Below, piece by piece: positions 12,349 to 38,571 of a stretch of DNA of 64,000 nucleotides. The stretch is taken from positions 37,239 through 101,238 of the forward strand of contig CAYNGY010000002.1 of NCBI GenBank assembly GCA_964397195.1. The letters are read 5' to 3'. The notes under the pieces were generated by a model, which did not search any database, had not been told where the DNA came from, and worked only from the letters and a program-made list of their open reading frames with translations. Position 1 is the first letter of the stretch. Every line of letters starts with the position of its first letter. This stretch comes from an uncultured Gammaproteobacteria bacterium. GTDB lineage: Bacteria > Patescibacteriota > Patescibacteriia > SBBC01 > CAIJZX01. A program made the position numbers and the translations under genes.

Positions 12349-12559
12349 CCACGCGGGGGAAGTGGCTGGACAGCCAACCGTTTACTGTATCATGTGAAAC
12401 TGAAAAAACGCTGAAAAATCCCGTTTCTTCGCTACGTTGAGCGGTTTTTTTGTAAAGCAAAAACCCCAGACCAGATGCCACCATCGCTTGCGCGACGATG
12501 GAATTGGTCCAGGGTATTGCCTGTATCTTTTACGATCCCCGGGGGGAGGGACGGTGCGG

Positions 12560-13078
12560 TTACTTGGTTCTGCTCTGGGCGAGGGGCCCAGGAAGGACGA
12601 CGTTCTCGAAGACGATGGATCGGCCGATGACCTTGCCGACAGGGGCACCTGGTCGACGGCAGTAGACGAGATCGTAGGAGTCGTCTGCGTGTCCGTTGAT
12701 GAAGATGCCGAAGCGGTCGCCGGCGTAGTTCATGTACGGCCTGGCCATCGGGTAGAGGACTTCATCGCGAATCGGCGTCTCGTCCATCAGGCGGACGTTC
12801 GGCCAGCGCGCGGCGTACTTCTTCAGGAAGTAGTCGTCGCCCGGCGAGCCGTAGGACGGCACGGTGCCGTCGATGAACGGGGTGATGGTCGCCGGCAGGG
12901 TGCCGTGCTTGAGCTGGTACTCGGTGATCTCCAGTGCGAGCTCGGTGACCGCCAGATTCTGCTGGCTTACCTCGAACTGGTGACGCAGGTTGGCGACCTC
13001 GATGTTCTGACTGCGGAACTGGGTTCCGATCCAGATCAGACCGAGGACCGCGAGAATGTAGAGAGCGACGATCTTCAT
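12560..13078 (-). CDS. hypothetical signal-anchored or secreted protein (172 aa)
   Basis: N-terminal hydrophobic segment MKIVALYILAVLGLIWIG. SD GGAGGA lies 3-4 nt upstream of the ATG. The overlapping plus-strand ORF 12437-13135 is D/E/R/G-rich antisense noise. Confidence 0.6.
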   Translation of the reverse strand: MKIVALYILAVLGLIWIGTQFRSQNIEVANLRHQFEVSQQNLAVTELALEITEYQLKHGTLPATITPFIDGTVPSYGSPGDDYFLKKYAARWPNVRLMDETPIRDEVLYPMARPYMNYAGDRFGIFINGHADDSYDLVYCRRPGAPVGKVIGRSIVFENVVLPGPLAQSRTK

Positions 13079-13179
13079 GATTCCTCCGTACGGGCGGAAG
13101 TGGTCAGGCTTGGTGCGTCTAGCGCGTCGGGGTGACGCGGTAGATCACCGGGGCGATGATGCCGAGGGTGGAGGCGCGC

Positions 13180-13365
13180 CTAGTCCTTCATGAAGTTGTA
13201 CTCCAGGTCGGACGGCGGTTCACCGTACTTCTTCTTCATCGCGGCGATATGCGTTTCACAGGCCATCGCACCGCCAGCGATCCCGACCGCCCGACCTTCG
13301 CCATTCCAGCGCGGGTCGAGCTTGCTGGTGACCCACCAGCTGCCTTCGCGAATTCCGAAGTCCAT
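13180..13365 (-). CDS. hypothetical small protein (61 aa)
   Basis: ORF preceded by SD AGGAGGA 8 nt upstream. High GC3 like its neighbours. Confidence 0.45.
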   Translation of the reverse strand: MDFGIREGSWWVTSKLDPRWNGEGRAVGIAGGAMACETHIAAMKKKYGEPPSDLEYNFMKD

Positions 13366-13393
13366 GTCTGTGTCCTCCTGATGGCGGTCGATT

Positions 13394-14095
13394 CTACTTC
13401 TGGCGGTAGACGAACCAGACCTCGTCCTTCCCGTTGATGGTGAAGACCGCCATCGTGACGTTGTCGATCTGGGTGCCGTGCTCGATGAGCCAGTGGTCCA
13501 GGTCGCCGGCGTTCTGGAAGACCTTCGCTCTGTAGCCTGGCTCCTCGCCCGGCTTGGGTGGAGGCTGGTAGCCCTGTTCCAGGCAAGGCACGATCACGGT
13601 TCGGGCCAGCGTCGCCGGGTCATCGGACTTGGAATTCGTCCGGATGGTAGCCGGTGGCGCGTAGCGGACGCGGTTCACGGGCACGTCGCCGCCGAACTGG
13701 TACTCCTGCAGGCGCTCCCATGATTCTGCGACCGCGCTCAGGGCCTTCCAGGTCGACGTGTAGCGAGTGCCGATGTTGGAAGACTCCTTGGCGTTCAGAC
13801 CCTTCCAGACGACAGCCAGACACGGGTTGGTGGTGTCACTGCCAGCGGCCGGAAACACGAACAGGTTGTAGCGCAGGTCTCTGGTCCCCAGGGCACCGCG
13901 GTAAGGAGCGGGCTGGAGGGTAGCATACCCGTACAGGCGGAAGGCCCGCCGGTGACCGAGCGCGTTGACGACGGTGACGTTGAAGCCCTCGATTCGGGAC
14001 TTGTAGTACCCGTCGATGGCGCCCTGGCTCGGCGTGGTGATGACACCGAGTGCCATGACCACGATCAGCAGGGTGATGCCGATGCTTGATTTCAT
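13394..14095 (-). CDS. hypothetical secreted protein (233 aa) with N-terminal signal peptide
   Basis: Signal-peptide-like N-terminus MKSSIGITLLIVVMALGVITTPSQGA. SD context GGAGGAATCATGAA is identical to that of the 12560-13078 gene. Its start overlaps the stop of the upstream receiver gene (ATGA). Confidence 0.65.
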   Translation of the reverse strand: MKSSIGITLLIVVMALGVITTPSQGAIDGYYKSRIEGFNVTVVNALGHRRAFRLYGYATLQPAPYRGALGTRDLRYNLFVFPAAGSDTTNPCLAVVWKGLNAKESSNIGTRYTSTWKALSAVAESWERLQEYQFGGDVPVNRVRYAPPATIRTNSKSDDPATLARTVIVPCLEQGYQPPPKPGEEPGYRAKVFQNAGDLDHWLIEHGTQIDNVTMAVFTINGKDEVWFVYRQK

Positions 14096-14481
14096 GATTC
14101 CTCCGGGTTGAGGAGCTCCGTCACCTGCGCGATCAGTTCGCGCGGGCTGAAGGGCTTCGCCATGAAGCGGTGGGCGCCGGCCGCGCAGTACGATCGTCCG
14201 TCAACGTCCGAAGGCTCGGGCGTGGTCAGGACGATAACCTTGATATGCCGGAACGCGGCCCAGGCGACCGTTGCGGTGAGTAGCTCGGGTCCGTTGCCGC
14301 GGTTGAGACGCGGGTCGATGATGATGACGTCGGGCGACGTGCGCTTCAGCTCGATCAGCGGGTTACTTGACCGGCTGATGATGACGACTTCGAAGCCTTG
14401 GTGGCGACTCAGTCGGTAGTCGAGCAGATCCGCATGCTTCGGATCATCGTCGATGACGGTGATACGTCGTTTGTTAGTCAT
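14092..14481 (-). CDS. stand-alone response-regulator receiver (CheY-like REC domain)
   Basis: Starting at MTNKRRITVIDDD (ATG at 14481, SD GGAGGG) it has all REC hallmarks: the DDD acid pocket, phospho-acceptor Asp in VIIIDPRL, Thr in VIVLTT and Lys in AKPF. There is no output domain. The track ORF extends to 14571, but the upstream extension lacks an SD. Confidence 0.75.
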   Translation of the reverse strand: MTNKRRITVIDDDPKHADLLDYRLSRHQGFEVVIISRSSNPLIELKRTSPDVIIIDPRLNRGNGPELLTATVAWAAFRHIKVIVLTTPEPSDVDGRSYCAAGAHRFMAKPFSPRELIAQVTELLNPEES

Positions 14482-14911
14482 GCGCCCTCCGTGGCACGTA
14501 GGTGGTAGGAAAGACGAGGCGGCGTCCGGTGTAGTAGAGCAGTGCGACCATGGCGAGCGCCATGATGACACCGAAGAACTGATCGGGTGCCCAACTGCTT
14601 TGCCACTGGTTCCAGGTGCGGATGTTCACGAGCATGACCATCGCGAACCAGAAACAGCCGGTGTGAATGCCGTAGTCGCGTCGGTACATGATGCGAATCA
14701 TCAGCACCGACGTGAGGACGGCGAGAGTCCACGCGCCGTAGATCATGAAGATGCTCGGCGCGCCTTCCACCAGCTCATTGTAGCCCTCGGCGCCGTCGGG
14801 GAACCATTCCCAGAACTGGTTTTGCCAGTTCCAGAGAGCGGCGCCGATGACGGCGAGAGTGAAGGCGGCGAAAAGACGAGCGATGCCGAACGCATACTGC
14901 TTGAGAGTCAC
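14474..14911 (-). CDS. hypothetical integral membrane protein (about 4 TM, 145 aa), GTG start
   Basis: Four hydrophobic helices, W/F-rich. SD GGAGGAG 4 nt upstream of the GTG start. Its 3' end overlaps the receiver gene start by 8 nt, so they are co-transcribed. Confidence 0.6.
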   Translation of the reverse strand: MTLKQYAFGIARLFAAFTLAVIGAALWNWQNQFWEWFPDGAEGYNELVEGAPSIFMIYGAWTLAVLTSVLMIRIMYRRDYGIHTGCFWFAMVMLVNIRTWNQWQSSWAPDQFFGVIMALAMVALLYYTGRRLVFPTTYVPRRAHD

Positions 14912-15094
14912 GGGACTCCTCCGTTTTTTATGACCGGGCGAGGGAGATCACCGGTCGTTGTCAATGGTCGACGCGACCCTCGCTTGAACTCACCAGTCTA
15001 ATGAGCAGAAAAGACTGATGAGTCCAAGTGAAGATCCGGCGGCGGACTCGCGTGTTACTGCGAGTCCGCCGTCAGAGTGCGGGTTGAATATCTT

Positions 15095-15211
15095 CTACCA
15101 CCGACTAGGGTCTTTGACCTTCGTCCAGTCGATGTTCTTCGGACGCGTTCGCCAGACGCCGATAGCGTAGATGGCGAGCATAGCCACCGCGAGAATGTCC
15201 GACCACTTCAT
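15095..15211 (-). CDS. possible small membrane protein (38 aa: MKWSDILAVAMLAIYAIGVWRTRPKNIDWTKVKDPSRW)
   Basis: Short ORF not in the supplied track. Found by eye, it has one hydrophobic helix and a GGAAAGG SD-like sequence about 9 nt upstream. A strong 11-bp hairpin lies downstream at 15041-15070. Confidence 0.3.
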   Translation of the reverse strand: MKWSDILAVAMLAIYAIGVWRTRPKNIDWTKVKDPSRW

Positions 15212-15245
15212 GGGTTGGCCTTTCCGCGGCAAGGGGGGGGTGGTG

Positions 15246-15401
15246 TTACGCGGCCGCTTGGCCGAGTTCCTTCTCGAGGGTAGCGATCCGATAGCGCAGT
15301 TTCTCGCGCTCCCGTTCGCCGCCTTCGCCTTCCCGATCGTTCTCGTTCAACTCCGCGAGGAGTCGGTCGAGATCGGCCTGGATCTCTGTGCGCGTGCGCA
15401 T
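15246..15401 (-). CDS. hypothetical small charged coiled-coil protein (51 aa)
   Basis: Internal ATG of track ORF 15246-15674 has strong SD GAGGAG 6 nt upstream. The product is MRTRTEIQADLDRLLAELNENDREGEGGEREREKLRYRIATLEKELGQAAA. It starts 12 nt after the stop of the upstream membrane-protein gene. Confidence 0.4.
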   Translation of the reverse strand: MRTRTEIQADLDRLLAELNENDREGEGGEREREKLRYRIATLEKELGQAAA

Positions 15402-15412
15402 GTCGTTCTCCT

Positions 15413-15808
15413 CTAGAGTTGCGGCCAGCGGAAGAAACAGTTCAGGAGCAACAGGATGCCGATGATCTTGCCGATCAGCGTGATGACGTAGCGCGCGATC
15501 TCGGTTTCGTGGCCGAGGTCGTACTCGAACGTCCGATGATCGCCCATTTCCTTGTTCAGGGCGGTCGCGATGCGCTTCAGCGACGAGATGGTGTTGCCGC
15601 AGTGCGTGGCCATACTCAGACCGAGCACTGCCGCCACGACGCCGGCCATCCAGCCGAGCGTGTAGTTGTGCCACACGTGGTTGGTGACCCAGGCGACGGG
15701 AACCATCAGGATCGCGATCATGAAGAAGATCGTGAAGATGATGAGTTCGAGGCGGAAGACTTCGTACTGCTTGAGCAGTGAGCGGATGTAGATCTCATCC
15801 TGATCCAT
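15413..15808 (-). CDS. hypothetical membrane protein (about 131 aa from MDQDEIYIRSLL...)
   Basis: Start chosen at the ATG with SD GGAG 6 nt upstream. Two to three TM helices (LELIIFTIFFMIAILMVPVAWV; GWMAGVVAAVLGLSMA; ITLIGKIIGILLLL). Confidence 0.55.
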   Translation of the reverse strand: MDQDEIYIRSLLKQYEVFRLELIIFTIFFMIAILMVPVAWVTNHVWHNYTLGWMAGVVAAVLGLSMATHCGNTISSLKRIATALNKEMGDHRTFEYDLGHETEIARYVITLIGKIIGILLLLNCFFRWPQL

Positions 15809-15893
15809 TTGCACTCCTCGGCGGCTTGAGCCGCGAATGGGTAGTGGCGTGGACAGCGAGTCCGTTTCGAAGATATTCGTGAGAGTTAAGGTG

Positions 15894-15979
15894 CGACTCT
15901 CGTTTGAAGGTTTCAATGGTTGAAACTCTCAAACGAGAGTCCCAGTACCGGCTGTCCTTGTCGGACTTCCGGTACTGGG
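15894..15979 (-). repeat. tandem perfect inverted repeats (nested 13-bp + 7-bp hairpin, then an 11-bp hairpin) between two co-oriented island genes
   Basis: First hairpin: GACTCTCGTTTGA (15894-15906) pairs with TCAAACGAGAGTC (15929-15941), enclosing the inner stem GTTTCAA/TTGAAAC. Second hairpin: CCCAGTACCGG (15941-15951) pairs with CCGGTACTGGG (15969-15979). Neither is followed by a U-tract. Confidence 0.7.
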
Positions 15980-15995
15980 ATGATCTCATCTACAT

Positions 15996-16451
15996 CTAGA
16001 TGAACTCGTACTTCGGGCCGTTGGCGAAGATGGCGCGCGTGTACCAGCGACGACCCTGTTGGTCGAAGTACTGCAGGTCGACACGCTCGACGCCCTCGGA
16101 ACGGTCCGGCAGGTAGCTGAAGTTCAGCTTACCTCGGCAGGCCTTGCCGCCGGTGTCCTGGTGGCACTCGATACGCTGGCCGCTGTCGGGATCGTTGAAC
16201 TCGAGGTAGTCCTTCGAGAACATGCTCATGACCTCGAAGATGCTCCGCGGGAGCTGACCGTTGTTGTTGACTCGGAAGTTCTCGACCTTGTCAGCCATCC
16301 GGTTCATGGTGTTGACCAGGGACTCGTGCCGATGCCCGGCCTGGCTCCGTACGAGCTGCGTCTGAGTCTCCTTGAGCCGACGCAGAAGGTACGTGCTGTA
16401 CATGGCGGCGGCAACACCGAAGATAGCGAGGATGAACACGGAAATGCTCAT
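15996..16451 (-). CDS. hypothetical N-terminally anchored protein (about 151 aa)
   Basis: Start at the second ATG (MSISVFILAIFGVAAAMYSTYLL) with SD GGGAGA. One TM helix followed by a hydrophilic domain. Confidence 0.55.
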   Translation of the reverse strand: MSISVFILAIFGVAAAMYSTYLLRRLKETQTQLVRSQAGHRHESLVNTMNRMADKVENFRVNNNGQLPRSIFEVMSMFSKDYLEFNDPDSGQRIECHQDTGGKACRGKLNFSYLPDRSEGVERVDLQYFDQQGRRWYTRAIFANGPKYEFI

Positions 16452-16662
16452 GAAGTCTCCCATGCTTGACCGGATCTATCCGGGGCGGGTTGGAGTGGCG
16501 AAGACGACGAGTTTATTGTAGATGAGAGTAGAAAGAACAAACTCTATCTCTCGCATAACGTGACCACGTGGTGATCAGGTTGTGCGAGAGGCCCGGAACC
16601 ACTCCTTCCGATCTTGTCGGGAGTTTGGTTCTGGGCCGAACGAAGGTGCTCTCGCGGAATGC

Positions 16663-16911
16663 CTAGTAGGTGCGCGTCTCGGCGCGATTGGTCTCGCGGT
16701 GGAGCGAGACGGCCAGCCAGAGTACGCCGGTTCCGATCACGGTGACGAACAGCGCGGCCGGGAAGAGGCGGGGGTCGGCACTGTAGTCCTTGATGGCCGA
16801 GTAGACGCCGTAGAGGCCGAGCGCCGCGATCGCCGTCCCGAAAACGGACAGGACCGCGGACAGCATGTGACGACCGAACTTCTGGTCAGGCGTGAGGCGG
16901 AGCGTCGACAT
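16663..16911 (-). CDS. hypothetical small membrane protein (82 aa, 2 TM)
   Basis: Two hydrophobic helices. SD AGGTAGGA upstream. The overlapping plus-strand ORF 16582-17064 is D/E/R/G-rich antisense noise. Confidence 0.5.
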   Translation of the reverse strand: MSTLRLTPDQKFGRHMLSAVLSVFGTAIAALGLYGVYSAIKDYSADPRLFPAALFVTVIGTGVLWLAVSLHRETNRAETRTY

Positions 16912-17136
16912 GGATTCCTACCTTTCGGTGAGGGGCGGGTGATACGAAAAAACGCGTTGCGGCGACAAATCCCGGAGCAGGTTTATCACAACAACGCGTT
17001 TTTCACATATCGTGTCCGACGTCTGCTCACGTGGCACGAAGCGGGTATATTTAAAGAACAGTAGATTATACGCTTGGCGGCGAAAAATGTCAAGAGTAAG
17101 GGCGTGGCGACGGATCGTATTTGGCTAATTATAGCC

Positions 17137-17159
17137 AAAAAAACCCAGCCGAAGCTGGG
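17137..17159 (-). terminator. rho-independent terminator for the RNase III-like gene (minus strand)
   Basis: On the minus strand: CCCAGC-ttcg-GCTGGG followed by TTTTTTT (plus-strand 17137-17159 reads AAAAAAACCCAGCcgaaGCTGGG). Confidence 0.7.
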
Positions 17160-17184
17160 GGTAGGGTGGGGTTCTTGGGCCCTG

Positions 17185-17982
17185 CTACTTCCGAATTTCG
17201 GCGAGCAGGCGCGTCAGCGCGAATTCTCGAGCGCGAGACGGATTGGGGGACTTGCCGCGAGTGAGGCATCCGTTCAGCTTGGCCGTGCAGTGGTAGACGG
17301 CGTTCCTCGGACCACCGCGTCGACGATTCTGGATCCGTGGTACCGGGTAGCCGTGTTGACGGGCGTAGATGACGAGTGCGGCCCACGGATTGAGGCGGCG
17401 GCCGTTGACGGTCGTAGGTGTGACCTCCAGCAGATCCTCCGGTCGGTGGTCGTTCCCTTGGTCAGTTGTGACCTCATGGCCGTTCGTGACCGGGATGGTC
17501 GTTGGCAGGGGATGTCTCAGCACGTACGGCAGGTACCGTTCGATGACGTAGGCCTCAGCCGCAGCGACTCCTTGGTGGCGGTCGATGATGGCGAGGACGC
17601 ACTCGAAGGTTGTGCCGAGAGTGTGGTCAGCTTTCCGTGCGTTGCGGCGCGATCCCGTCAGTTGGCGAGCGAGATTCGCGACGCCGATGTGGCCGAGATA
17701 GGTCGCCATGCACCCGTTCGTCGTGACATGGTCAACCCACGTCGGGTCGAGACCATGCGCCGATCCGTTCTTATTGAACCAACGTCGAAGCGCGAGCTCA
17801 ACGATCGAATCGCCGATGAACGAGAGCGCTTTCCGAGTGTCTTCGTAGGGCAGTGGGTGACGTTCGCCCGACTGGCCGGTGATGATGATCCGGATCCAGT
17901 CAGTCGACAGGTCGGGTAGCCCAAGCTGCGTCCTGATGACGCCGAAGAGCGCATTTCGCGTCGATCCATTTGCGGTTCCCAA
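17185..17982 (-). CDS. RNase III-like protein (catalytic-domain-like region, about 60-aa insert, C-terminal dsRBD), TTG start
   Basis: KALSFIGDSIVELALRRWF matches the RNase III signature ERLEFLGDAxLEL. HTLGTTFECVLAIIDRHQG matches ADxFEAxxGAIYLD. The C-terminal segment NPWAALVIYARQHGYPVPRIQNRRRGGPRNAVYHCTAKLNGCLTRGKSPNPSRAREFALTRLLAEI is dsRBD-like. SD AAGGAG lies 7 nt upstream of the TTG start. Confidence 0.6.
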   Translation of the reverse strand: MGTANGSTRNALFGVIRTQLGLPDLSTDWIRIIITGQSGERHPLPYEDTRKALSFIGDSIVELALRRWFNKNGSAHGLDPTWVDHVTTNGCMATYLGHIGVANLARQLTGSRRNARKADHTLGTTFECVLAIIDRHQGVAAAEAYVIERYLPYVLRHPLPTTIPVTNGHEVTTDQGNDHRPEDLLEVTPTTVNGRRLNPWAALVIYARQHGYPVPRIQNRRRGGPRNAVYHCTAKLNGCLTRGKSPNPSRAREFALTRLLAEIRK

Positions 17983-18164
17983 GGTGCACTCCTTGTGTGT
18001 CGGTCCGTGCTACGGGAGTAGAACGGTGCTCCTGCCTCAAGCCTAGGCTCGTTTCGCGGTATCGTCAAGGATACTTTCGGTATGTGGAAAACTGGTATTT
18101 ACGGTTCGGTTATTATTCCCCGGCTCGCGGGCCGGGGCAGGCTAAACCTTAGAAAATCAGGGTC

Positions 18165-18194
18165 TTGACGCTTCGGTTATTATTCGGGTATCAT
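18165..18194 (+). promoter_or_regulatory. putative recA promoter (TTGACG-N18-TATCAT), overlapped by the second copy of a 15-nt direct repeat
   Basis: -35 TTGACG at 18165-18170 and -10 TATCAT at 18189-18194. The repeat TTCGGTTATTATTCS occurs at 18105-18119 and 18172-18186. Confidence 0.45.
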
Positions 18195-18260
18195 ATATAT
18201 ATTAGTCCCGACTGAGCCCGATAGTGGCTAGACGGAGACACTAACCGAAAGGAAAAACAT

Positions 18261-37131: not shown

Positions 37132-38073
37132 CTAGGCGCCGAGGCCGCGATCACCGATGATCGACTTCAGGTGCTCAATCATGGCGACGCCGCGACGTTC
37201 CTGCGCCGGGTTCGAGACGCGAACTTTCGTCCGCGGCGGACCGAGCAGGGCGCGGGTGATCTCGGCGAGCTTCCGGCCGTGGATCGGCTGGGGCTCGGCG
37301 TGCTTGACCTCTTGCTCGAGCAGTTGCAGACCGGCCTCCAGCTCGATGGCCCGACCGCGCGGCGCGTCGATGGTCTCGTCGACGGAGACGAAGGTCACAT
37401 AGTCGGCGGTCGATTCCCAGGTGGCTACGAACTCGATCAGGCGGGTGAGTGGCCAGGGCGAGCCCGGTGTCCAGACGATCGTCTCATGCTCGTTCGCGAA
37501 CTCGATCTGATGGACACTGATCACGTTGACGTGCCAGGGATAGTGTCCGTCCTTGTTGAGGATCGCCTCCCAGTTCTGGTACTCGGGATCGTATCGATAG
37601 AGGATTCCCGGCTGGCCGTCGCCGAAGCGCGGCATGCGGATTGCGAAGGGGATCGCCGCGCTGAAGTACTGCGGGTGTGGCTTGAACCCAAGCTGACCCG
37701 AGTTCAGTATCGGCGGATCTTGGTGTGCGTGAAGCTCGCCGTCGGGCGTGATGGCGAGCCAACCCTGACCGAACTGGTAGCGGGTCTGCCAGGTCAGGAA
37801 GGACCAGAGCGTGTACAAAACTGCCGCGGACAGCACGGCGATAACCGTCCAGCCTTCGCGGGTGTACGCCTGCCAGTCGCGCTGTGTGTCCGAGAGCGCG
37901 AGGGACATGAAGACGAACAGGGCGATGCCGAAGAGCAGGCAGATAACCCCGTACATCTCCTTCTTCCAGCGCCGGGTGTTCTGCTCAGCTGCGGTCACAT
38001 ACTTCCGATCGAAGTGGTGATCTTGAAGCTGACGTGCCGCCTGGCGACAGGCCCGACAGTTTTCTTGTGACAT
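37132..38073 (-). CDS. hypothetical membrane protein (about 313 aa) with very high GC3, probably horizontally acquired
   Basis: Start at MSQENCRACRQAARQ with SD GGAGGA 5 nt upstream. Two TM helices (VICLLFGIALFVFMSLAL; WTVIAVLSAAVLYTLWSFL) and a W/Y-rich C-terminal domain. The overlapping plus-strand ORF 37114-38070 is D/R/G-rich antisense noise. Confidence 0.55.
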   Translation of the reverse strand: MSQENCRACRQAARQLQDHHFDRKYVTAAEQNTRRWKKEMYGVICLLFGIALFVFMSLALSDTQRDWQAYTREGWTVIAVLSAAVLYTLWSFLTWQTRYQFGQGWLAITPDGELHAHQDPPILNSGQLGFKPHPQYFSAAIPFAIRMPRFGDGQPGILYRYDPEYQNWEAILNKDGHYPWHVNVISVHQIEFANEHETIVWTPGSPWPLTRLIEFVATWESTADYVTFVSVDETIDAPRGRAIELEAGLQLLEQEVKHAEPQPIHGRKLAEITRALLGPPRTKVRVSNPAQERRGVAMIEHLKSIIGDRGLGA

Positions 38074-38571
38074 GGCATCCTCCAGAACCGAATCAGCCTC
38101 GATCCCGCTCCGCTCCAAATCGTCGGAGTCGCGGATACTGATCCGGCGGATGTGGGTCGATCGACCCAATGTGAAGCTACGACCGTCGGACAACGACGGG
38201 ATGGACTTGCTTTATCAGAAAAGAGGGGATTTGTCAATCCCCGATAGCGCAATTTGGGCTAAGATGCGGCCAAAGGAAAAGTACACATTGGCCCATTCAA
38301 TACTGTAACGTTCGGGAGCGAGAAGTGTAACGTTGGGTGTGGGTGATGTGGGGCCGATGTCCTGCCGGACGGGCATTCCTTTTCTCCTTGATGAGAAAAG
38401 GAACCGAAAAGAATCAAGCGGCCGATAAACTCGGGCCGCAAATTGGCGGCCCTCAAACAGTATCGGCCGCGCAACGGTTTCATCGCTTGGAAGACGGACG
38501 GCCAAAACCAACCACCCCTCCCGTGTCATCCCCGCGTAGTCGGGGAAAGGAGGGGCTGGTGGGAAAACGCG
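38074..38571. other. roughly 500-nt non-coding region dense in nested inverted repeats (possible structured RNA, or regulatory/terminator region)
   Basis: Examples: GGCCGATA-aactc-GGGCCGC-aaattg-GCGGCCC-tcaaacag-TATCGGCC (about 38432-38485). CCCCTCC...CCCCG-cgtagt-CGGGG...GGAGGGG (about 38515-38560) directly downstream of the rnj stop. TTTTCTC-cttgat-GAGAAAA. GGGGATT-tgtca-AATCCCC. Confidence 0.4.

Follow-up and report, generated by a model that had tools for sequence, protein, structure and literature searches.

Gene organization at the locus

The window analyzed here is a 64 kb stretch of DNA from a bacterium of the Patescibacteria (Candidate Phyla Radiation, CPR), and this study concerns a gene on its minus strand that encodes a ribonuclease III (RNase III)-like protein (hereinafter referred to as the target; Table 1). 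On profile evidence, the target appears to be a paralogue of bacterial class 1 RNase III that has diverged strongly. An earlier reading of the window, made by eye from its sequence (hereinafter the sequence-only reading), had described this protein; the open reading frame (ORF) named there was recovered as an exact minus-strand ORF, and both motif strings quoted from it were present in the translation.

The gene was preceded by a Shine-Dalgarno sequence and followed directly by an intrinsic terminator. The GC content at third codon positions (GC3, 0.73) was higher than those at the first and second positions (GC1 and GC2), which is the pattern of a coding frame, and tblastn matched the gene to those of two relatives, P0001 and P0002 (E about 1e-11). 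Its Shine-Dalgarno sequence, TTG start, terminator, and GC3 pattern, and the homologues that were called as genes elsewhere, show that the target is a genuine gene that stands alone, with a ribosome-binding site and a terminator of its own. No structured RNA was found near the target, the only Rfam matches being two distant tRNAs, and the fold of its 5' intergenic region was unremarkable (z -1.75).

Table 1. Window coordinates of the target, its domains and motifs, and the surrounding features.
Feature	Position	Strand	Description
Complete gene, RNase III-like protein (target)	17185..17982	-	265 aa; TTG start 17982-17980; stop TAG 17187-17185; from the ORF list
Shine-Dalgarno sequence	17989..17994	-	AAGGAG, 6 nt 5' of the TTG start; read from the sequence
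Intrinsic terminator	17137..17159	-	CCCAGC-TTCG-GCTGGG then TTTTTTT; terminator scan, 6 pairs, 5/6 G-C; directly 3' of the target stop
RNase III catalytic (endonuclease-type) domain, predicted	17512..17967	-	residues about 6-157, including the N-terminal helix
Degenerate signature motif	17797..17832	-	KALSFIGDSIVE, residues 51-62; hhalign and three MAFFT modes
Second catalytic motif	17590..17628	-	DHTLGTTFECVLA, residues 119-131; hhalign and PDB profile alignment to T. maritima RNase III
Long linker	17389..17511	-	residues about 158-198; Pro/Thr-rich, predicted disordered
Divergent double-stranded RNA-binding domain, predicted	17188..17388	-	alpha-beta-beta-beta-alpha; residues about 199-265
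Antisense ORF, judged non-coding	17104..17919	+	271 aa; in public gene calls instead of the real gene; without Pfam match
Lineage-specific insertion (island), 5.9 kb	12349..18260	.	between the HTH_25 gene and recA; about 8 minus-strand genes, the target last, next to recA
Island ORFan genes	12560-13078, 13394-14095, 14092-14571, 14474-14911, 15413-15916, 15996-16463, 16663-16911, and the target	-	

Relatives of the target

An exhaustive phmmer search of 1.84 billion cluster representatives, corresponding to about 15 billion proteins, returned only two relatives, P0001 (E 6.8e-7) and P0002 (E 6.7e-6). Each of them came from a single Logan contig, and both contigs belonged to the same SRA series (SRR22388172 and SRR22388223). 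DNA-level scans of GTDB representatives, IMG/VR, and JGI metagenomes detected no additional family members, and a profile-seeded word search found P0002 only. Amino acid sequence identity among the three members was 24-33%. The absence of the target from public gene calls (see below) is an example of antisense gene calling, which probably contributes to the near-empty look of the family.

All three members kept the full-length two-domain architecture. The genes of the two relatives (L001, 10001-10705, and L002, 261-1007) were both solo genes with their own Shine-Dalgarno sequence and hairpin/T-run terminator, and the Shine-Dalgarno sequence of P0001 (AAAGGAGG) was located at the same distance from the start as in the target. 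The L001 relative was the sole plus-strand gene between the minus-strand housekeeping genes flavodoxin and purH. Its contig had a GC content of 61% and a GC3 of about 0.8; P0001 thereby matched the composition of its host, and this composition resembled that of the island in which the target is encoded.

Homology to RNase III

The Pfam model Ribonuclease_3 (PF00636) matched the target with an E value of 8.8e-5 and 23.7 bits, under the gathering cut-off of 27 bits. The score for PF14622 was 14.6 against a cut-off of 35, so that neither RNase III domain model reached its gathering threshold, and Mycovirus_RNAse was matched at E 4.6e-4. With the target alone, no NCBIfam match was obtained, a phmmer search against the PDB returned nothing, and a word-index homologue search yielded nothing useful.

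A family profile was built from three sequences (the target, P0001, and P0002) and compared with a reference set of 121 canonical RNase III sequences of the CPR type (including the product of L004 2939-3631 and proteins P0003-P0122). The hhalign comparison gave a probability of 94-96% with E values of 1.2e-7 to 1.7e-9 over 221-226 columns, and the match extended end to end, including the N-terminal helix, the catalytic domain, and the C-terminal double-stranded RNA-binding domain (dsRBD). The catalytic domain alone was matched at 90.7% (E 1.3e-6), with a score of 43.6; thirty column-shuffled controls reached 18.6 at most, and cross-domain negative controls lay at 11-15. Against the PDB, the three-sequence profile matched RNase III of Thermotoga maritima in a region spanning the second catalytic motif and the dsRBD. 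The identity of the target to canonical Rnc was 13-17%. Homology over the whole catalytic domain was thus obtained by profile-profile comparison, together with an all-helical RNase III fold. By these scores, which for the separate domains lie above those of shuffled profiles, the RNase III homology proposed in the sequence-only reading is well beyond chance.

Catalytic residues

The signature string KALSFIGDSIVEL corresponded to residues 51-63 of the target translation, and the longer string KALSFIGDSIVELALRR to residues 51-67. LGTTFECVLAI, in the second catalytic motif, corresponded to residues 122-132, and the string LGTTFECVLAII to residues 122-133. The sequence-only reading had proposed that the residues be placed on the Pfam Ribonuclease_3 model; they were placed here using hhalign and MAFFT in three modes, which gave identical correspondences.

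K51 of the target was aligned with E38 of Escherichia coli RNase III (Asp in P0001 and Gln in P0002), S54 with E41 (Ala in both relatives), D58 with D45 (Asp in both), T124 with D114 (Asp in P0001 and Thr in P0002), and E127 with E117 (Glu in both). Further, F55 and G57 corresponded to F42 and G44 of the E. coli enzyme. Instead of the signature ExLExLGD (E. coli residues 38-45), the target had KALSFIGD, in which L40, G44, and D45 were kept and E38 and E41 were replaced by Lys and Ser, respectively. The four metal ligands of RNase III are E40, D44, D107, and E110 in Aquifex aeolicus, equivalent to E41, D45, D114, and E117 in E. coli (PMC3867540). Of these, the target retained only the equivalents of D45 and E117 (D58 and E127), and S54 and T124 replaced E41 and D114. 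This agreed with what had been read by eye, namely that two Glu had become Lys and Ser, that the first Asp of the second motif had become Thr, and that one Asp and one Glu were left; a proper alignment did not restore the four acidic residues.

The spacing between D58 and E127 was 69 residues, and that in canonical RNase III is 66-72. G57, D58, D119, L122, G123, and E127 were invariant in the three-member family, and the two catalytic motifs were its best-conserved blocks, even though the members share only the low identity given above. Among the 121 canonical CPR sequences, which are of the Falkowbacteria type, E38, E41, D45, and E117 were invariant, and the position of D114 (D107 in A. aeolicus) was occupied by Asn in 91 and by Asp in 30.

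Linker, dsRBD, and structural model

The last helix of the catalytic domain ended at about residue 156 and helix alpha1 of the dsRBD started at about residue 199, leaving a linker of about 40 aa. This is shorter than the 60 aa or so that had been estimated by eye. The canonical linker between the two domains is about 7 aa (PMC3867540), and gaps in the hhalign alignment indicated insertions of 26 and 7 aa, that is, 33 aa in total relative to canonical RNase III. The length of the linker differed among the three family members.

The dsRBD, which had been called clear in the sequence-only reading, proved to be divergent. No Pfam dsrm match was found for the target, and the three-sequence profile matched the dsRBDs of XlrbpA, TRBP, and Staufen in the PDB at E values of only 0.03-0.2. 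When the dsRBD alone was compared by hhalign, an E value of 1.1e-3 and a score of 22.1 over 66 columns were obtained, compared to a shuffled maximum of 14.6. The GPDH motif was GPRN in the target. The C-terminal region may thus be described as a divergent dsRBD that is weakly supported by its sequence.

Structure prediction with AlphaFold2 (AF2) using a merged multiple sequence alignment (MSA) of 40 sequences, including canonical RNase III, gave a predicted local distance difference test (pLDDT) score of 74.5. In this model, the helical catalytic domain had pLDDT values of 80-96, residues 160-189 were below 50, and an alpha-beta-beta-beta-alpha domain was predicted at residues 199-264. The structural matches of the model were the C. 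jejuni RNase III domain (14.1), mL57 (13.8), E. coli RNase III (13.7), RTL4 (13.4), mL44 (13.4), Mini-III (4OUN; 11.6), and dsRBDs (11-12). The predicted model is consistent with the profile evidence but is not independent of it, because canonical RNase III sequences guided the prediction.

Comparison with known RNase III-like proteins

The target aligned end to end with class 1 RNase III (Rnc; 7R97 of E. coli, 1O0W of T. maritima, and 2NUG of A. aeolicus) and had the same order of elements: an N-terminal helix is followed by the all-helical RNase III domain, in which the G-D and xxxE motifs are located, then by a linker and, at the C terminus, by a predicted dsRBD of the alpha-beta-beta-beta-alpha type. 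Class 1 enzymes were also the top structural matches, and the Asp-Glu spacing of the target was within the class 1 range. In contrast to class 1 enzymes, the target has Lys, Ser, His, and Thr at the positions of E38, E41, E65, and D114, diverged dsRBD contacts, and a linker of about 40 rather than about 7 aa. Moreover, class 1 RNase III is a housekeeping gene present once per genome in a conserved context, whereas the target is encoded in a lineage-specific insertion.

In all three solved Mini-III proteins (MrnC, class 4; 4OUN and 6TNN of Bacillus subtilis, 1U61 of Bacillus cereus, and 2GSL of Fusobacterium nucleatum), the positions of E41 and D114 are occupied by Ala and Thr, and the Asp and Glu are kept. 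The target shares this reduced acidic pattern, with S54, D58, T124, and E127 facing Ala, Asp, Thr, and Glu. The correspondences were confirmed by an hhalign comparison of canonical RNase III with Mini-III (94.6% probability), in which the B. subtilis protein had Leu at the position of E38 and Pro at that of E65. Mini-III is a catalytically active double-stranded RNA (dsRNA) endonuclease (PMC3867540, PMC4357697). For the active site of the target, it therefore offers the best analogy in terms of mechanism. A check of the PDB entries showed that 4OUN carries E106Q and 6TNN carries D23N; D23 and E106 are therefore the residues that were mutated to inactivate Mini-III.

The target also differed from Mini-III in several features. 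Mini-III consists of the catalytic domain only, whereas that of the target is followed by about 110 aa that include a dsRBD-like domain; the extra helix alpha5b and the alpha5b-alpha6 loop, which replace the RBM4 loop in Mini-III (PMC4357697), were not found in the target; and the Asp-Glu spacing is 83 in B. subtilis Mini-III. The target was also considered as a Mini-III fused to a dsRBD, but this was ruled out by its overall similarity and motif spacing, which are class 1-like.

The target has the RNase III fold and a non-canonical active site in common with several inactive RNase III-like proteins, including the mitoribosomal proteins mL44 and mL57, chloroplast RNC1, and plant RTL4/NFD2, which occur with or without a dsRBD. 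They belong to eukaryotic organelles, and no sequence-level relationship with the target was detected. RNC1 is silent through active-site mutation (PMC3867540). The loss of the D45 and E117 equivalents, taken as the mark of a pseudo-enzyme from what that source reports for RNC1, was not seen in the target. Mucor R3B2, an RNase III-like protein that cuts single-stranded RNA, has a non-canonical acidic cluster together with dsRBDs and is still an active nuclease (PMC8136814). It differs from the target in being fungal, in having two dsRBDs, and in its three remaining acidic residues, among which Asp and Glu are exchanged.

Taken together, the target and its two relatives form a new, very small, and very divergent RNase III subfamily with class 1 architecture, a reduced catalytic centre of the Mini-III type, and an unusually long tether. 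Within a well-known family of enzymes, the target is an unusual variant and no new kind of system.

Possible catalytic activity of the target

Whether the target is an active but specialised, weakly metal-binding nuclease is about evenly balanced. Its catalytic centre is reduced to D58 and E127, the equivalents of the two most important carboxylates of RNase III. Characteristic of the RNase III superfamily are homodimers and a Mg2+-dependent cleavage of dsRNA that leaves 2-nt 3' overhangs. The target protein would dimerise via its RNase III domain and act as an endoribonuclease that depends on Mg2+ or Mn2+, is specific for double strands, binds metal weakly, and takes a narrow, specialised substrate; its long tether would allow the dsRBD to reach widely. 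The gene reached the CPR genome within the 5.9 kb high-GC3 island.

E117, which is essential, forms a bridge between both metal ions (PMC3867540). In a deep mutational scan of E. coli rnc, D114 was the only position of the active site at which substitution was tolerated, D114G being near wild type (PMC10037077). In addition, a set of two carboxylates, Asp and Glu, is compatible with catalysis by the RNase III fold, because Mini-III is active with that set. The sequence-only reading had left the choice between an inactive dsRNA-binding pseudo-enzyme and a non-canonical nuclease. Of these, the former cannot be read from the substitutions, given the Mini-III pattern, the tolerance at D114, and the prevalence of Asn at that position in canonical CPR enzymes, and a 'dead enzyme' inference is not warranted; the latter would, by the same analogies, be at least as likely.

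A number of observations weigh against an active nuclease. No substitution at E41, D45, or E117 was tolerated in the E. coli scan (PMC10037077). Because of this intolerance at E41 in E. coli, its replacement by Ser is the one truly worrying substitution in the target; in vitro, E41A has only weak activity. E38A/V was strongly deleterious in the same scan (PMC10037077), and K51, located beside the metal site, could repel Mg2+. The equivalent of E65 is His (residue 76) in the target. P0002 has Arg at the 'ball' position F42, and F42R inactivates E. coli RNase III. In the dsRBD, the Gln-Glu pair of helix alpha1 is replaced by Val-Ile, and the SKxEA/KKxAK region by NPSRAR, of which only R252 is invariant in the family. 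The comparison of the target family with Mini-III by hhalign gave a probability of only 18-23% with several gaps, and the Mini-III precedent accordingly counts as an analogy and not as shared active-site ancestry, because the family is class 1-like by profile, spacing, and predicted dsRBD. The AF2 prediction was confident only with canonical RNase III in the MSA; the three-sequence alignment gave a pLDDT of 33. Finally, no functional partner of the target was recognisable in the island.

The fuller proposal, in which the family would be a hitherto unrecognised, active, horizontally mobile, and substrate-specialised subfamily of dsRNA nucleases that combines class 1 architecture with a two-carboxylate centre of the Mini-III type and a long tether, and that is invisible to gene callers, is doubtful as a whole. 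If it were true, a minimal Asp/Glu centre would have arisen more than once, or the family would be intermediate between class 1 RNase III and Mini-III.

A catalytically dead pseudo-RNase III, which would have kept the fold and the dimeric valley for binding dsRNA or structured RNA and lost two-metal catalysis together with the equivalents of E38, E41, E65, and D114, is a tentative but serious alternative; such a protein would bind, mask, or chaperone an RNA. The intolerance of E41 and E38 to substitution in E. coli, at the positions of S54 and K51, speaks for it, as does the fact that just two of six acidic active-site residues are left in the target. Naturally inactive RNase III-like proteins are known (RNC1 and KREPB4/5; PMC3867540), and E. 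coli RNase III with E117K still binds dsRNA. However, D58 and E127 are invariant in three very divergent members whose catalytic motifs are the most conserved parts, which would be unexpected if catalysis had been lost, and Mini-III catalyses with the same reduced set. The RNA-contact residues of the dsRBD are degraded too, which argues against a pure dsRNA-binding specialist.

It is improbable that the target is a decaying, functionless passenger, i.e., an RNase III paralogue carried by the island under relaxed selection and heading to pseudogenisation. The extreme rarity of the family (two relatives among the 1.84 billion representatives and none in the DNA scans), the very high divergence between its members, the erosion of both catalytic and dsRBD contact residues, and the location in an island of ORFan genes would fit such a passenger. 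In contrast, the frame is uninterrupted throughout its 265 codons, the Shine-Dalgarno sequence is strong and the terminator clean, all three members have retained their full two-domain length and their own expression signals, and conservation is concentrated on the catalytic motifs and the structural core. The L001 homologue, which matches the composition of its host, looks like a resident gene there.

If the target is the active, specialised nuclease considered above, it would be the second independent natural case, following Mini-III, in which an RNase III catalyses with no carboxylates other than those of D45 and E117, and this in a scaffold with a dsRBD. It would then help to define the minimal catalytic requirement of the RNase III fold, and would caution against applying the label 'dead' when E41 or D114 is missing. 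An inactive target would instead be a rare bacterial equivalent of the RNase III pseudo-enzymes known from organelles.

Antisense gene calls in the public record

The Logan contig SRR12487045_10899 was 100% identical to window positions 8261-29364, and the locus is also present on an NCBI contig of 246.5 kb. Public gene calls across the locus are the plus-strand ORFs 17104-17919 (271 aa) and 16582-17064 (160 aa), and the antisense product of the target region has been deposited in NCBI and Logan. No family matches were found for either of these two products. Public protein sets lack the target and an 82-aa minus-strand gene (16663-16911). The RNase III-like protein is missing from protein databases because gene callers took the antisense ORFs. 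The ORF antisense to the target, which is open over 17074..17919 (+), had its highest GC content at the first codon position, typical for the antisense of a gene.

That the minus-strand ORF is spurious and the annotated plus-strand ORF of 271 aa is the real gene is highly improbable: the plus strand is indeed used by the automated calls on the Logan contig of identical sequence and by the protein deposited in NCBI, but no Pfam model matches its product, and its higher GC1 than GC3 is typical of an antisense strand, whereas the minus-strand product aligns end to end with RNase III, has homologues that were called independently on other contigs, and is flanked by the AAGGAG Shine-Dalgarno sequence and the terminator. 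Antisense calling has thus left a recognisable enzyme homologue out of protein databases. The broader impact is modest.

Genomic island and neighbouring genes

RecA of the window was 72-77% identical to RecA of metagenome-assembled genomes of Patescibacteria, and nothing closer was found. In at least five relatives (L003, L020, L014, L010, and L009), the gene order was ftsK-HTH25-recA with HTH25 directly adjoining recA; where the loci of relatives extended further, rpoB-rpoC was located upstream and efp-rpsR-ssb downstream. No island genes were found in the 80 loci compared. The GC3 of the island was 0.73-0.90, compared to 0.52-0.68 in core genes, and its GC content was 0.58-0.63, compared to about 0.54. 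The target is located in a horizontally acquired island of a CPR bacterium, and the foreign look of the region noted in the sequence-only reading is borne out by synteny and GC3. That reading had also suggested looking for a second, canonical rnc elsewhere in the genome; within the 64 kb window, no canonical rnc or Mini-III gene was found.

Among the other island genes, the only recognisable domain was a response-regulator receiver encoded by 14092-14571, whose true start is probably internal. For several island genes, longer plus-strand ORFs were present as antisense artefacts. Searches of the island detected neither border repeats nor att sites, and no integrase, transposase, or adjacent tRNA was present. 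Neither the target nor the island genes had meaningful matches in PADLOC or PHROGs. Nothing was returned when phage and plasmid genomes were searched by tblastn or when the island was compared with phages by blastn, and BFVD gave generic giant-virus RNase III only. Nothing in these searches marked the island as a known mobile or defence element, and a defence or phage origin, which was considered, found no support in them.

Several sequence elements were observed in and around the island. A perfect sigma-70 consensus promoter (TTGACA, 17 nt, TATAAT; 12/12 positions matching) was located at 17065-17093 on the minus strand, directly downstream of the target terminator, and is directed towards the small membrane-protein genes 16663-16911, 15996-16463, and 15413-15916. 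The start of the last of these genes (15413-15916, minus strand) is straddled by a 25-nt near-perfect inverted repeat (15892-15944; 88% complementary, with a 3-nt spacer).

In the intergenic region between recA and the target, a 25-nt direct repeat, GGT[AC]TT[TG]ACG[GC]TTCGGTTATTATTC, was found at 18094-18118 and 18161-18185 on the plus strand, the copies being 67 nt apart. No further copies were present in the window, and two copies were reached in 0/100 shuffles. The second copy overlaps the predicted -35 box of recA, and a GC-rich hairpin (about 18119-18139) is located between the copies. The two copies may form an operator pair, or a promoter may have been duplicated in part at the right edge of the island.

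Outside the island, a 353-aa ORF (37132-38193, minus strand) without Pfam match was a second outlier in composition, located in a 1 kb block of 62% GC. With a GC3 of 0.81, it may be another foreign gene.

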